The position numbers and the translations under genes were made by a program. Under the pieces are notes generated by a model. It did not search any database. It saw only the letters and a program-made list of their open reading frames with translations, and was not told where the DNA came from. This document shows, one piece after another, positions 735-16,305 of a stretch of DNA of 64,000 bases. Source of the stretch: Anaerolineae bacterium. GTDB taxonomy: Bacteria > Chloroflexota > Anaerolineae > JAAYZQ01. The stretch lies in contig DAOTXL010000077.1 in the NCBI GenBank assembly GCA_034435455.1, positions 9,344 to 73,343 of the forward strand. The letters run 5' to 3'. Numbering within the stretch: the first letter of the stretch is position 1; every line of letters begins with the position of its first letter.

Positions 735-778
735 TAACCTCCAATTTCTAATCTTTAATCTCTAATTTAACCCGATTC
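735..778. repeat. AT-rich heptamer-like tandem repeat (TAATCTC-type) overlapping the hdrB 3' end
   Basis: Plus strand reads ...ccaatttctaatctttaatctctaatttaacc, with ~7-nt periodicity in an otherwise GC-rich context. Confidence 0.45.
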
Positions 779-1635
779 ATCCTCAACCCCAACTCATCGG
801 GCGTGAAACCCAAAGCCAGCCCCAGCAATTGCGGGTAATAGAGCACCGGCAGGCGGTAGGTCACGCCAAACTGGCGCTCGATGCTGCGTTGATTGATCTC
901 GTACATGATGTCGCAGAAAGGGCAGATGAGGATCAGGCCATCGGCCCCGGCGATGTGGACATGTTCCAGCTTGCTGTGGGCGATGGCCAGGGCCGTTTCC
1001 GGGTCAATGGCCAGGATGCCGCCGCCGCAACATTCCCCCTCTTCTTCATAGGGCACCAGCCGGGCGCCGGTAGCCTCAATCAGGTCGCCCAGGGTGTGGG
1101 GGTTCTCCGGATCGTCGAACCGGCCGTGGAGGTGGGCCGGCTTGAGATAGTGGCAGCCATAATGGGCGGCGAAGCCGTACGATGAGAGATCGATCCCTTT
1201 CCCTTCGCTCCGGGCGAGCGCCACCATCTGGCGCAGCCGCTCCGGGCCGACCTCTTCGTAGAGGATGCGGGCGTAATGGCGTACCCGCACCGTGCCCTCG
1301 TAGCGGCGGCCGGTCGTCTCGGCCAGCAGGGCGTTGACGCGGGCCCGCAGCGCCTGGTCATGCCGGAGGCGATAATCCGCTTCCAACAGGGTGCCGGTGC
1401 AGGCGCTGCACAGCGCACACACCTCCAGCCCTCGCTCCTCGGCCAGGGCCAGGTTGTTGGCTGCCATCAGCAGGGCCGCCTCCCACTGGAGCGGTTTGGT
1501 CGGATAGCCGCAACAGGTAAAGCCTTCCACGTCCACGAACTCCAGGCCCAGCCGTTCCGCCGTCCGTCGGGCGGCCAGCTCGTAGTTCATGGCCCGTACC
1601 GGCACGGTGCAACCCAGGTATAGTGCGAATTTCAT
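748..1635 (-). CDS. hdrB: Heterodisulfide reductase subunit B (two CCG domains)
   Basis: YLGCTVP, TCCG, CSAC, HYGCH, ECCGGG, CPFC and LPVLYYPQLLGLALG motifs. Confidence 0.93.
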   Translation of the reverse strand: MKFALYLGCTVPVRAMNYELAARRTAERLGLEFVDVEGFTCCGYPTKPLQWEAALLMAANNLALAEERGLEVCALCSACTGTLLEADYRLRHDQALRARVNALLAETTGRRYEGTVRVRHYARILYEEVGPERLRQMVALARSEGKGIDLSSYGFAAHYGCHYLKPAHLHGRFDDPENPHTLGDLIEATGARLVPYEEEGECCGGGILAIDPETALAIAHSKLEHVHIAGADGLILICPFCDIMYEINQRSIERQFGVTYRLPVLYYPQLLGLALGFTPDELGLRMNRVKLEIKD

Positions 1636-2135
1636 GCTTCTTCCGCCTCTTTCACCACACCACAGCGGACCAGGATGCGTCGCACGTCGTCGGCCTGTTC
1701 CTGGATCGGCGGCAGGCCCTGTTCTGCCCGGCGCTCGTTCTCAAAGGCGGTGATCTCGTACAGCCGGCCATGGTCGCGCAGCAGGCCTGCCTGTTGGAGG
1801 AAGGCCGGCGGCACATACCCCTGGCGCACGGCAATGTTGCGGATGGCGTTCATCAGCTCCGGGATGTGCACATCCTGGGGACAGCGTTCGTAGCAGGTGT
1901 AGCAGGTCGAGCACAGCCACACAAACTCGCTGCTCAGGACCTCCTGGCGCATGCCCAGCAGGGCCATGCGCACGATGCGCCGGGGGTTGTATTTTTCCGT
2001 CCGTCCGGCCACCGGGCAGCCGGCCACGCAGGTGCCGCACGAGAAGCAGCGCAAAAAGCGCTCCCCGCCCGGTTCGGCGGCGATCTCGGCCCGGAAGCCG
2101 GGGTCCAGGCGGCCCACGTCTATCATCTCAGGCAT
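1632..2135 (-). CDS. hdrC: Heterodisulfide reductase subunit C (2x[4Fe-4S])
   Basis: CFSCGTCVAGCP and WLCSTCYTCYERCPQ; ATGA overlap with hdrB. Confidence 0.93.
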   Translation of the reverse strand: MPEMIDVGRLDPGFRAEIAAEPGGERFLRCFSCGTCVAGCPVAGRTEKYNPRRIVRMALLGMRQEVLSSEFVWLCSTCYTCYERCPQDVHIPELMNAIRNIAVRQGYVPPAFLQQAGLLRDHGRLYEITAFENERRAEQGLPPIQEQADDVRRILVRCGVVKEAEEA

Positions 2136-2159
2136 CGGCCCCGCTCCTACCCGTCCACT

Positions 2160-3293
2160 CTATCCCTTTACGGCCTGGCCGATCCAGCCGATCAGATCGC
2201 GAACCTCCACCGAGCGGTCGGCCTCCAGGTCCCGCGCGGCGCAGGTCAGGTGGATCTGGCACTTGGGGCAGGTGGTCAGCATCACCTGGGCGCCCGTCTC
2301 CCGCGCCTGGCGCAGCTTTTCCTGCTGGATCAGTTTGGAACAGCCGCTGCAATTGACCCACGCCGTCGAGCCGCAGCACATGGCGCGCTCGCGGTTGTCT
2401 TCCATCTCGGCCAGCTCGAGGCCCGGCACACCGGCCAGGACCTGGCGGGGCGGTTCGTACACCTTCAGGTAGCGGCCCAGACGGCAGGGGTCGTGATAGG
2501 TCACGCGGCCGGGCAGTGGTTCCAGGGTCAGGTCGCCCCCGGCCATCTTGTCGGCCAGCAGTTCGGTCAGGTGCAGCATCTCGAAAGGCAACTGGCCCAC
2601 AAAGGCCGGGTATTCGTTCTTGAAGGCGTTGTAGCATTCGGCACAGGTAAAGATCACCTTCCGGGCCCCGCCGGCCCGGATCGTTTCGACATTCAGCTCT
2701 GCCAGCCGCCGGAAGCTGGCCAGGTCCCCGGCCAGCAACAGGTCGGCGCCGCAGCACCGTTCGGCGTTGCTGACGATGGGGGCGATCCCGACCCGGTTCA
2801 GCAACCGCACGGCGCTGCGGGCAATGGCCAGGGCCTGGACCCCCAGGTCGGCAAAGATGACGTCGAAAAAGGGCAGGCAGCCCACAAAATAAAAGTACTC
2901 CCCGTTCTCCACCACCTCCATGTCGGCGGTCAGCCAGTCGGTGCGGTTCTGGTGGACGTTCATCGTCTGGATGCGCATCACTTCCTGCAGGATGCCGTTG
3001 TGGGCATAGATGCCCCGCTCGCCGGCCTGGAACGCCTCGGCCCGCATTTCGATGATGAACCGGGCGAAATCCACATGGGAGGGGCAGCGGGCGCTGCACA
3101 ACCCGCAGGTCATGCACATCCACAGATGGGGGTCGGCCATGACCGCCGTGGCCTCGCCGCCGACCACCCGCTCGACGATGCGGCGGGGCGAATAGTCGGG
3201 GTCCACCCAGGCCAGCGGGCAACTGCCGGTACACTTGCCACAGTCCAGGCACAGATAGGCCCGGGTCCGTTGGATGATCGCTTGAAAGTTCAT
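2160..3293 (-). CDS. hdrD: HdrD/GlcF-like Fe-S oxidoreductase (2x[4Fe-4S] plus two CCG domains)
   Basis: CLDCGKCTGSCP, CMTCGLCSARCP, YFVGC, RCCG, CAEC, YHDPCRLGR, MCCG, TCPKC. Confidence 0.82.
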   Translation of the reverse strand: MNFQAIIQRTRAYLCLDCGKCTGSCPLAWVDPDYSPRRIVERVVGGEATAVMADPHLWMCMTCGLCSARCPSHVDFARFIIEMRAEAFQAGERGIYAHNGILQEVMRIQTMNVHQNRTDWLTADMEVVENGEYFYFVGCLPFFDVIFADLGVQALAIARSAVRLLNRVGIAPIVSNAERCCGADLLLAGDLASFRRLAELNVETIRAGGARKVIFTCAECYNAFKNEYPAFVGQLPFEMLHLTELLADKMAGGDLTLEPLPGRVTYHDPCRLGRYLKVYEPPRQVLAGVPGLELAEMEDNRERAMCCGSTAWVNCSGCSKLIQQEKLRQARETGAQVMLTTCPKCQIHLTCAARDLEADRSVEVRDLIGWIGQAVKG

Positions 3294-14920: not shown

Positions 14921-14954
14921 TTCTATCCCCTTCTTGTTCCAGGCCGGGCGGGTC

Positions 14955-16091
14955 TCAACAGCCGCGTGAGGCAGCGACCGCCTTTTGGGCAGCTTCGGCC
15001 AGGCTGGCCGCCGTCATCATCTGGGCTTCGGCCAGGATGCGCCGTCCTTCTGCCTCGTTGGTACCCACCAGCCGGGCCACCATCGGCACCTTTGTCGGCA
15101 CCTGGCGGAGCGCGGTCAGGATGCCCCTGGCCACCTCGTCGCAGCGGGTGATGCCGCCAAAGATGTTGAACAGCACCGCTTTGACATTCGGGTCGGACAG
15201 GATGATGCGCAGCGCGGCGGCCACCTTGTCGGCCTGGGCGCCGCCGCCGATATCCAGAAAGTTGGCCGGGGCGCCGCCGTGCAGCTTGATGATGTCCATC
15301 GTGGCCATGGCCAGGCCGGCGCCGTTGACCATGCAGCCGATCTCACCTTCCAGTTTGACATAGCTCAGGCCATAGCGGCGCGCTTCCTGTTCTTCAGGGG
15401 TTTCCTCGTCGGCGTCGCGCATCTCGGCCAGTTCGAAATGCCGGAAGAGGGCGTTGTCGTCCAGCAGGATTTTGCCGTCCACGGCCAGCAGCCGGCCCTC
15501 GTCGGTGACCACCAGGGGGTTGATCTCGGCCAGGGAGGCATCGCACTCGACAAAAGTGGTGTACAGCCCCTGGGCGATTTTCACGAAATCGCCCACCAGT
15601 TCCTTGGGCAGGCCGATGCCAAAGGCCAGCTCGCGCCCCTGGTAGGCCTGGAGGCCCAGGAACGGGTCAATGGCGAGGGTGACGATCCGCTCCGGGGTGG
15701 CGCGGGCCACCTCCTCGATCTCGACCCCTCCTTCGGCCGAGGCCATGATCACCGGTCGGCGGCGGGCGCGGTCTATGACGATACCCAGGTAGAGTTCGGT
15801 GGCGATCTCGGCGGCTTCATCCACCAGCACTTTTTTGACCGTCAGGCCTTTGATGTTCATGCCCAGGATCTGGTTGGCGACCTGTTCTGCCGCGTCGGGG
15901 TCGTTGGCCAGGCGGATGCCGCCGGCCTTGCCCCGGCCCCCCACCAGCACCTGGGCCTTGACGACGACCCGTTTGTCCAGCCGGGCGGCGATCTGGCGGG
16001 CCTGCTCCGGGGTGATCGCCACATCGCCCTGGGGGATCGGCACCCCGTAGCGGGCAAAGATCCGTTTCGACTGGTATTCGTGCAGCTTCAA
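14955..16091 (-). CDS. sucC: Succinyl-CoA synthetase beta subunit
   Basis: [62 protein letters not shown]. Confidence 0.97.
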
Positions 16092-16276
16092 TTCTCCCTC
16101 CTCCGCTCAGGGTCCGGCAGCGGGGCGGATGGCCGGGCCGGGCGGCCAGACAACAGGGAGCCAGGCGCACTCCCGACCCCGACCGGCCGGGGGTCGAGGG
16201 GAGATGGCTGGCTCCTCTTGCCTGACCTGGCTTCCTCTTTCACGCCCATCGCCCCATTGCGCGTTTGACGGGGGAT

Positions 16277-16305
16277 ATTATAGCACGCTGTGGCGGGGGA
16301 GGCAA
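16277..16305 (-). promoter_or_regulatory. Sigma70-type promoter of the suc-kor-hdr operon
   Basis: TTGCCT-N17-TATAAT with extended-10 TG. Confidence 0.65.

Follow-up and report, generated by a model that had tools for sequence, protein, structure and literature searches.

Conserved linkage of 2-oxoacid oxidoreductase genes with a hydrogenase-free, NAD(P)H-linked set of heterodisulfide reductase-type genes in an Anaerolineae genome: a predicted bifurcating system

Gene content of the cluster

The present study examined a 64-kb stretch of DNA (64,000 nt, contig DAOTXL010000077.1 of assembly GCA_034435455.1; hereafter the window) from an Anaerolineae bacterium, in which genes encoding succinyl-CoA synthetase (sucCD) and a four-subunit 2-oxoacid:ferredoxin oxidoreductase (kor) adjoin genes of the heterodisulfide reductase (Hdr) and MvhD families. 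An earlier note, made from the letters of the stretch without database searches, had listed 13 tightly packed genes from sucC to hdrB. Analysis of open reading frames (ORFs) recovered all 13 in that order, every one on the minus strand, and their families were assigned by Pfam and NCBIfam profile searches, with methanogen equivalog models included for the Hdr genes, as follows:

14955-16091, minus strand: sucC, 378 aa, TTG start; ADP-forming succinate-CoA ligase beta subunit; Pfam ATP-grasp_2 and Ligase_CoA; NF001913 at 541.8 bits (cut-off 370)
14054-14920, minus strand: sucD, 288 aa; succinate-CoA ligase alpha subunit; NF004230 at 454.4 bits (cut-off 336); GHAGA phosphohistidine motif at residue 246
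13567-13875, minus strand: korD, 102 aa; 2x[4Fe-4S] delta subunit; Pfam Fer4; two CxxCxxCxxxC motifs
12287-13570, minus strand: korA, 427 aa; 2-oxoacid:acceptor oxidoreductase alpha subunit; POR_N and PFOR_II; NF006412 at 563.9 bits (cut-off 411)
10707-12281, minus strand: korBC, 524 aa; beta-gamma fusion; Pfam TPP_enzyme_C and POR; GDG...NN thiamine pyrophosphate (TPP) motif at residue 125
7417-10710, minus strand: hdrL-like gene, 1097 aa; HdrA/NfnB fusion
6998-7393, minus strand: mvhD1, 131 aa; [2Fe-2S] connector; Pfam FlpD (PF02662), E 5.8e-34; gene call of L080
5706-7001, minus strand: hdrA', 431 aa; flavin domain and inserted ferredoxin domain
3927-5699, minus strand: hdrA'', 590 aa; N-terminal domain, flavin domain and C-terminal ferredoxin domain
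3420-3926, minus strand: mvhD2, 168 aa; Pfam FlpD (PF02662), E 7.7e-54
2160-3293, minus strand: hdrD, 377 aa; fusion of an HdrC-like part (2x[4Fe-4S]) and an HdrB-like part (two CCG motifs)
1632-2135, minus strand: hdrC, 167 aa; best match TIGR03290, below cut-off; two CxxCxxCxxxC motifs
748-1635, minus strand: hdrB, 295 aa; two complete CCG motifs; TIGR03288 at 239 bits, below the cut-off of 345

From sucC to hdrB, the gaps between these genes measure, in order, 34, 178, -4, 5, -4, 23, -4, 6, 0, 126, 24, and -4 nt. The korBC stop and the hdrL start overlap by 4 nt, mvhD1 begins 23 nt after hdrL, and only two gaps are wide, namely sucD-korD (178 nt, 13876-14053) and mvhD2-hdrD (126 nt, 3294-3419), which are exactly the two junctions that the earlier note had named. 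In neither of them did a motif scan of the minus strand detect anything resembling a promoter or terminator, and both spacers folded no better than shuffled sequence (z -0.95 and 0.03, respectively). No extra reading frame was found between the 13 genes across 748-16091. On the plus strand, an ORF of 579 aa (1623-3362) runs antisense to hdrD and hdrC, with a G+C content at third codon positions (GC3) of 0.66 versus 0.80 for hdrB, and is most likely an artefact of the high G+C content and not a gene.

The absence of mvhAG, fdh, and flxABC, as the earlier note had it, extends beyond the cluster, with no hydrogenase (MvhA/MvhG), formate dehydrogenase, or Flx genes detected there or elsewhere in the 64-kb window. 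In addition, no Flx-type architecture was found among the 13 genes, no NfnA-like gene in the window, and no ferredoxin gene in the cluster.

For the succinyl-CoA synthetase, both subunits scored above their equivalog cut-offs and the Pfam domains and phosphohistidine motif were present, and a malate-CoA ligase was rejected on its model score (454 vs 604). For the adjoining oxidoreductase, delta, alpha, beta, and gamma parts were all identified, with the beta and gamma parts fused. Comparison with sequences in the PDB revealed that KorA is most similar to the 2-ketoacid oxidoreductase of Pyrococcus (1yd7, 414 bits), followed by 2-oxoglutarate:ferredoxin oxidoreductases (OGOR; 8ys5 at 262 bits and 6n2n at 221 bits), with far lower scores for pyruvate:ferredoxin oxidoreductase (PFOR; 55 bits) and oxalate oxidoreductase (43 bits), and KorBC matched best to 8ys5_C, the beta subunit of an OGOR. 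Among substrate-specific NCBIfam models, those of OGOR/Oor scored highest for the beta and delta subunits, the korD matches being OGOR delta and OorD, both below cut-off. Given that sucCD adjoins kor, that KorA is nearer to solved OGORs than to PFOR, and that the best substrate-specific models are of the Kor/Oor type, 2-oxoglutarate is the likeliest substrate of Kor.

The protein encoded directly after korBC conforms to the HdrL type defined earlier, with HdrA-type domains, a GltD-like NAD(P)H domain, and mvhD next downstream (PMC2702500). Its first part (residues 1-95) corresponds to the beginning of the flavin domain of HdrA (HdrA-type Rossmann). The inserted ferredoxin domain that follows, with its two cluster motifs at 97-107 and 627-643, is interrupted by a complete module of the NfnB/GltD type for FAD and NAD(P)H (137-662), in which the Fer4_20 cysteines and the GAGPAG, GGGNTA, and YRR motifs are all present. 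This module shares 41-42% identity with NfnB (5jca_L/4ylf_B; TMt 0.72), and the closest sequence and fold matches of residues 137-640 are the bifurcating NfnABC and StnABC complexes and NfnB. The earlier claim of a link to NAD(P)H is thus borne out by a complete module, and an NfnB-type NAD(P)H/FAD site in HdrL is well supported by these motifs and matches. Beyond the insertion, the thioredoxin-reductase (TrxR) domain is not continued in full; instead there are an HdrA N-domain-like unit (~718-890), then a short Rossmann-like stretch, and finally a ferredoxin domain at the C terminus (1020-1097). AlphaFold modelling of HdrL gave a poor structure (pLDDT 67, pTM 0.45), which was used for the NfnB-type fold alone, not for the HdrA-type flavin site.

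The two hdrA genes had been read earlier as the N- and C-terminal halves of one gene. Alignment to the HdrA of PDB 5odc revealed two paralogues with complementary domain losses instead, and these domain maps exclude a single split hdrA. HdrA' aligns to residues 145-562 (flavin domain and inserted ferredoxin domain), lacks the N-terminal and C-terminal HdrA domains, and retains the equivalents of Cys194 and Cys197 (C52 and C55), whereas HdrA'' aligns to 1-243 and 316-653, lacks the inserted ferredoxin domain, and has TMAHAREL in place of the cysteines (no Cys197). Both retain GGGxAG and score 426-459 bits against the 5odc protein. No single protein here has the canonical four-part architecture of 5odc, and HdrA' and HdrA'' jointly supply one copy of each part; the complementarity of their losses suggests an asymmetric heterodimer. 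Chadwick et al. 2022 (PMC9012536) took a complementary N-domain/Cys197 pattern as the mark of presumed asymmetric HdrA heterodimers. The additional HdrA of relatives is full-length and fused to MvhD, and its gene has an in-frame TGA (DIECSI*ILGPKM; L010 18044-18046 and L005 17092-17094) at the position of Cys197, where the window HdrA' has a cysteine; the TGA probably encodes a selenocysteine that ligates the N-domain cluster.

Both MvhD proteins carry the FlpD domain, one with cysteines at 22/51/76/81 and the other with five (13/16/42/67/72). Two CCG motifs per protein (pattern C-x31-45-CC-x30-40-C-xx-C, for non-cubane [4Fe-4S] clusters) are complete in HdrB (9-79 and 161-241) and HdrD (139-220 and 270-345), and ferredoxin motifs occur in HdrC and HdrD. 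Membership in the CoB-CoM-specific HdrB family is not claimed because the methanogen equivalog models scored below cut-off. The window HdrD is 73-76% identical to the products of the hdrD genes that directly follow mvhD in L002-L004. A thiol:fumarate reductase was considered and rejected, as the TfrB match of HdrD spans the HdrD-like part alone and no flavoprotein subunit is present.

Conservation of the kor-hdr linkage and flanking regions

The gene neighbourhood was surveyed from both sides. A scan centred on HdrL with one genome per species yielded 79 loci (~58 Chloroflexota, ~20 Desulfobacterota, and one labelled Nitrosomonadaceae), whose gene content was counted by tblastn with the 13 window proteins, and a second scan queried metagenomes with KorBC and yielded 80 loci. 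Among the HdrL-centred genome loci, korBC lies immediately upstream of hdrL in 64 of 68, in Chloroflexota and Desulfobacterota alike, mvhD lies downstream in 62 of 66, hdrD is within 4 kb in 61 of 66, and an additional hdrA-type gene is within 10 kb in 42 of 44. Seen from Kor, 39/41 metagenome loci whose KorBC shares at least 70% identity with that of the window have an hdrL/hdrA-like gene that starts no more than 1.5 kb downstream of korBC; at ~50% KorBC identity, such a gene follows in only 6/16. In total, the oxidoreductase-Hdr link was seen in ~100 unrelated contigs.

The earlier note had set beforehand, as grounds for giving up its reading, a lack of conserved linkage in relatives. The linkage proved strongly conserved for kor-hdrL-mvhD-hdrD together with an hdrA, but not for the whole 13-gene string, with sucCD in 18/50 loci and hdrCB in 0/44. 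On these counts the conserved unit is narrower than the 13 genes and comprises kor, hdrL, mvhD, hdrD, and an HdrA, with sucCD and hdrCB as lineage-specific additions; no hdrB was found near hdrL in any of the 44 genome loci, hdrCB being confined to close relatives. The linkage recurs in Chloroflexota, across which the earlier note had suggested a synteny search, but it is not specific to that phylum, ~20 of the 79 loci being from Desulfobacterota. The complete gene order of the window was also found in L081, L133, and L022 (HdrL 78-90% identical), and an identical copy of HdrL, with the same neighbours, is present on a 14.9-kb contig of GCA_964559445.1. The nearest named relatives are Anaerolineae metagenome-assembled genomes. 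HdrL homologues number in the thousands and Kor-type loci several hundred, and no cultured host was found, the names among the best 120 matches to a Desulfobacterales HdrL all being metagenome-assembled genomes.

Several variants of the locus were observed. In Desulfobacterales, HdrL and MvhD usually form one polypeptide of 1221-1249 aa with PF02662 (L010 9971-13702, P0121-P0127, and many others), and a tandem double hdrL follows kor in L008, L012, L038, L048, and L092. Many loci also have, beside the cluster, a second and divergent set of 2-oxoacid oxidoreductase genes with 31-53% identity to korA/korBC (e.g., L011 20281-23303, L027 20647-23192, L047 4526 onward, and L094 6107-7935). In L139 (3110-13492), korDABC is followed directly by three hdrA-type genes, mvhD, hdrD, hdrC, and hdrB, among which tblastn assigned no NfnB-containing HdrL; this locus may represent a Kor-Hdr link without the NAD(P)H module. 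Moreover, a GAF-domain sensor histidine kinase and a response regulator lie between hdrD and hdrA in 19 loci of Anaerolineae and Desulfobacterales (e.g., L010 14985-17165). The embedded two-component system suggests dedicated regulation of the cluster; its genes are absent from the putative operon of the window. Homologues of a UDP-glucose/GDP-mannose dehydrogenase with 72-90% identity directly follow hdrD in ~10 Anaerolineae loci (L002 15307-16029, L005 15025-15744, L009 10070-10792, and others).

Three further features flank the 13 genes of the window:

16277-16305, minus strand (5' end at 16305): promoter-like site; TTGCCT, 17-nt spacer, TG-extended TATAAT
16147-16215, minus strand (within the leader 16147-16270): terminator-like hairpin GGAGCCAG...CTGGCTCC with a U-rich tail, 45-75 nt before the sucC start codon
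1-724, minus strand: 5' part of a UDP-glucose/GDP-mannose-dehydrogenase-family gene (Pfam on the L005 copy), starting at 724 and continuing past the window edge

A promoter ahead of sucC had been claimed, and the site at 16305-16277 is kept in the relatives L081 and L022 and in weaker form in L133 (leader alignment), but the scan itself did not rise above chance (three sites vs 2.4 expected), so that the weight of the site comes from its right intergenic position and its conservation and not from the scan score. The terminator scan was likewise at chance level overall. In the leader hairpin, the outer 8 pairs are retained in 10/10 related leaders and the inner pairs show compensatory changes; the stability of the leader folding was not significant, and no Rfam match was obtained in a scan of 1-17500 (E<=1). 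The hairpin could be an attenuator or a riboswitch-like element. At the other end, the gene string does not stop at 748 as had been stated, since the co-directional dehydrogenase gene starts 23 nt after hdrB as a 14th gene, which may or may not belong to the transcription unit.

The remaining 48 kb (16406-64000) is a cell-envelope polysaccharide region with several GT4/GT2 glycosyltransferases, a B12-binding radical-SAM protein, a second radical-SAM protein, an FG-GAP repeat protein, a sulfotransferase, a nucleotidyl transferase, and a Wzt-type ABC ATPase. It also contains large frames without a Pfam match (e.g., 17158-18441, 20470-21969, 35001-36563, 50375-52099, 58198-59754, and 61321-63579).

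Predicted electron flow and alternative readings

Considering the domains and the neighbours together, the cluster may encode a hydrogenase-independent, NAD(P)H-linked system of flavin-based electron bifurcation or confurcation with OGOR as its low-potential partner, a reading to which we give about an even chance. The window would then be an expanded, lineage-specific form of the conserved korDA(BC)-hdrL-mvhD-hdrD plus HdrA-MvhD unit, whose four-gene core appears, from its domains, to hold a donor site, a connector, a high-potential module, and the low-potential partner. NAD(P)H would be bound at the NfnB-type module of HdrL, and the MvhD proteins would serve as [2Fe-2S] connectors to a high-potential branch, in which a disulfide would be reduced at the non-cubane cluster sites of HdrD and, here, also of HdrCB. 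Low-potential electrons would pass from the ferredoxin-domain clusters of HdrL and HdrA to KorD and then to KorAB, and the HdrA'/HdrA'' pair would contribute, as an asymmetric heterodimer, one N-domain/Cys197 cluster, one ferredoxin exit, and one MvhD entry. The net, reversible reaction would read

2 NAD(P)H + R-S-S-R' + succinyl-CoA + CO2 <-> 2 NAD(P)+ + RSH + R'SH + 2-oxoglutarate + CoA

with SucCD connecting succinyl-CoA to succinate and ATP. The potentials are about -500 mV for 2-oxoglutarate/succinyl-CoA + CO2, -320 mV for NAD(P)H, and about -140 mV for heterodisulfide, so that the net reaction would be nearly isoenergetic and close to equilibrium. Such near-equilibrium coupling of three couples is the standard logic of Hdr-type bifurcation.

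The 4-nt overlap of korBC and hdrL, together with the HdrL-MvhD fusions, argues for a physical unit. In a more specific form, which is somewhat unlikely, Kor would dock on HdrL-MvhD and receive bifurcated NAD(P)H electrons straight into the reductive carboxylation of succinyl-CoA, with no free ferredoxin and with the exergonic branch running from MvhD to HdrD. Such an assembly would be the bacterial counterpart of the methanogen Hdr-Fmd supercomplex, would join NfnB-type and HdrA-type flavins by low-potential iron-sulfur wires, and would act in Anaerolineae on a disulfide of neither the methanogen nor the DsrC kind.

A number of observations weigh against the bifurcating system as proposed. 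The HdrA-type flavin of HdrL is doubtful, judging from its first dinucleotide motif (GGSVAG instead of GxGxxG), the truncated TrxR domain, and the deleted Cys197 stretch. All three OGOR equivalogs scored under their cut-offs (NF007206 358 vs 579, NF007207 241 vs 364, and NF042987 66 vs 125 bits), and a co-directional sucD upstream of hdrL was found in only 18 of 50 loci, sucCD being absent from the other 32. In about half of the loci, hdrD and hdrA are separated by the two-component genes (GAF histidine kinase and response regulator) or by the UDP-sugar dehydrogenase gene, so that the cluster does not form one operon in every relative. Furthermore, none of the genes in the cluster encodes a candidate disulfide carrier, and Anaerolineae are not known to possess DsrC or coenzyme M/coenzyme B (CoM/CoB). 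The literature search found no biochemical, proteomic, or transcript evidence for any member of the system, and the 'HdrAL/POR' proteins of Syntrophobacter fumaroxidans, which received a one-line mention, were not detected in its proteomes (PMC5947623).

In a simpler alternative, Kor would be a non-bifurcating NAD(P)+-dependent 2-oxoglutarate oxidoreductase, HdrL would be its built-in ferredoxin:NAD(P)+ reductase, comparable to KorC of the 2-oxoglutarate:NADP+ oxidoreductase of Azoarcus evansii or to PadH of phenylglyoxylate dehydrogenase, and the Hdr parts would serve another purpose. The NfnB/GltD-type module occupies the low-potential port of the HdrA ferredoxin domain, through which electrons from Kor would come in, the HdrL flavin site of the HdrA type seems degenerate, and there is precedent in 2-oxoacid oxidoreductases with NAD(P)-reducing subunits, the PadE-I models being among the weak NCBIfam matches. 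Ferredoxin:NAD(P)+ reduction would, however, need none of the mvhD (62/66), hdrD (61/66), and HdrA (42/44) that accompany hdrL, and a loss of 180 mV would be unusual for strict anaerobes that retain CCG-type modules; we consider this enzyme unlikely. Close proximity of the genes could also arise with no complex at all, if sucCD-kor were a module of a tricarboxylic acid (TCA) cycle branch and the remainder a separate Flx-Hdr-type NAD(P)H:ferredoxin/disulfide bifurcating enzyme, the two being coupled by the soluble ferredoxin pool. Four-subunit oxidoreductases with KorD normally use free ferredoxin, Kor relatives at ~50% identity are often without hdrL (10/16), a 178-nt spacer precedes korD, and inserts occur inside the cluster in relatives. 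Such a loose arrangement nevertheless appears rather improbable in view of the near-universal kor-hdrL adjacency in two phyla (64/68 and 39/41) with its 4-nt overlap, the cluster without a ferredoxin gene, and the direct succession of kor and hdrA genes in L139.

The substrate and the direction of the proposed reaction admit alternatives as well. That Kor acts on another 2-oxoacid (pyruvate, branched-chain, or aromatic), with the adjacency of sucCD a lineage-specific accident, would agree with OGOR-specific equivalogs that stay below cut-off while the generic 2-oxoacid:acceptor model passes, with the 32/50 loci in which sucCD is missing, with the second oxidoreductase set beside the cluster in several loci, and with the annotation of the S. 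fumaroxidans cluster as a pyruvate:ferredoxin oxidoreductase (PMC5947623). It is quite unlikely, however, given the 221-262 bits of KorA to solved OGORs against 55 for PFOR and 43 for oxalate oxidoreductase, the OGOR/Oor identity of the best NCBIfam beta and delta models, and the position of sucCD, which is directly upstream and co-directional in 18 loci and close by, on the opposite strand, in several others. As for the direction, we lean slightly toward reductive 2-oxoglutarate synthesis. The oxidative, confurcating direction, in which 2-oxoglutarate (e.g., from glutamate) and a thiol pair would be oxidised, NAD(P)+ reduced, and ATP formed by SucCD through substrate-level phosphorylation, is a possibility short of probable. 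Cultured Anaerolineae are fermentative heterotrophs, and a net reaction near equilibrium, as proposed, could run either way. KorA is nearest to the Pyrococcus 2-ketoacid oxidoreductase, and the OGOR of Thermococcales is catabolic on glutamate-derived 2-oxoglutarate (PMC12016516). Against this stand the lack of an evident source of reduced thiols and the fact that oxidised DsrC is the available species in sulfate reducers. Moreover, the characterised Mvh-, Fdh-, Flx-, and MetFV-Hdr complexes use a disulfide or another high-potential acceptor as their exergonic pull.

If the proposed bifurcating system with OGOR is real, it would show how NAD(P)H can be used to drive, or to harvest, the -500 mV succinyl-CoA/2-oxoglutarate step in strict anaerobes that lack a strong supply of reduced ferredoxin, would provide a second example of bifurcated electrons fed directly to a CO2-fixing enzyme, and would open experimental access to what bacterial HdrB and HdrD reduce in organisms other than methanogens and sulfate reducers. 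Anaerolineae and Desulfobacterales of sediment, sludge, and the subsurface commonly carry the cluster, which is thus relevant to metabolic models of abundant uncultured anaerobes.

Comparison with known systems

The HdrL type was defined from the genome annotation of Desulfobacterium autotrophicum as a fusion of HdrA with a glutamate-synthase small subunit (PMC2702500), and S. fumaroxidans has 'HdrABC/HdrL' and 'HdrAL/POR' sets, with Sfum_0012-0018 beside an enzyme of the pyruvate:ferredoxin-oxidoreductase type (PMC5947623). As in the window, these sets have a large HdrA/GltD fusion with an NAD(P)H site, mvhD always next to it, and no hydrogenase. The two reports consist of annotation and proteomics, from which the likeness of Sfum_0012-0018 to the window is drawn, and neither sucCD, nor Chloroflexota, nor a conserved kor-hdrL-mvhD-hdrD core was described in them. 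The earlier note knew of no characterisation of the linkage, and a full-text literature search, whose reach did not include Pereira et al. 2011 or Appel et al. 2021, the latter of which may mention it, found no biochemical or comparative description of a kor-hdr linkage beyond the single S. fumaroxidans line (PMC5947623).

Among HdrA proteins with a similar insertion, HdrA9-11 of ANME-1 have an NfnB-like module of ~500 aa at the same insertion point in the inserted ferredoxin domain (PMC9012536). They differ from HdrL in being archaeal, in their CoM/CoB context, and in lying beside FdhAB-like or HdrBC genes and not a 2-oxoacid oxidoreductase (PMC9012536), and the remaining HdrA part is more reduced in the window HdrL, which then has an extra N-domain-like unit. 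The NfnAB, NfnABC, and StnABC complexes (PDB 5jca, 4ylf, 9bov, 9n5u, and 8oh5) share with HdrL an NADPH-binding bifurcating flavin and two [4Fe-4S] clusters toward the low-potential side. Unlike them, the window has no NfnA or HydBC-type partner, and MvhD with HdrD could replace the high-potential branch. Association of a 2-oxoacid:ferredoxin-type oxidoreductase with an NAD(P) flavoprotein module is in itself familiar from KorABC of Azoarcus evansii (2-oxoglutarate:NADP+ oxidoreductase) and PadEFGHI (NADH-dependent phenylglyoxylate dehydrogenase), which contain none of the Hdr, MvhD, or CCG modules and are not bifurcating enzymes.

With respect to complete Hdr systems, the FlxABCD-HdrABC complex of Desulfovibrio vulgaris, which Ramos et al. 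(2015) are said to have described, is reportedly hydrogenase-free; NADH is its mid-potential donor, an MvhD-like connector and HdrA are present, HdrBC acts on the disulfide of the protein DsrC, and bifurcation to ferredoxin was reportedly proposed for it. In contrast, the window has no flxABC, its site for NAD(P)H lies in an NfnB-type module that is part of an HdrA fusion, and the proposed acceptor is the adjacent Kor and not free ferredoxin. The Fdh-Hdr-Fmd supercomplex, attributed to Watanabe et al. (2021), is said to pass low-potential electrons directly into a CO2-fixing enzyme. Methanogen MvhAGD-HdrABC (PDB 5odc and 7bkb) resembles the window in the architecture of HdrA, HdrBC, and MvhD, whereas the system of the window is bacterial, lacks hydrogenase, formate dehydrogenase, and CoM-S-S-CoB, contains HdrD besides HdrCB, and would have a TPP enzyme as its CO2-fixing partner. 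In summary, the known partners of Hdr-type bifurcating complexes are hydrogenase, formate dehydrogenase, Flx, and MetFV, and a 2-oxoacid oxidoreductase as fixed partner has not been characterised among them; the linkage is solid as an observation at the level of sequence, and what is new here is a predicted Hdr-type bifurcating system with such an oxidoreductase as its new fixed partner.

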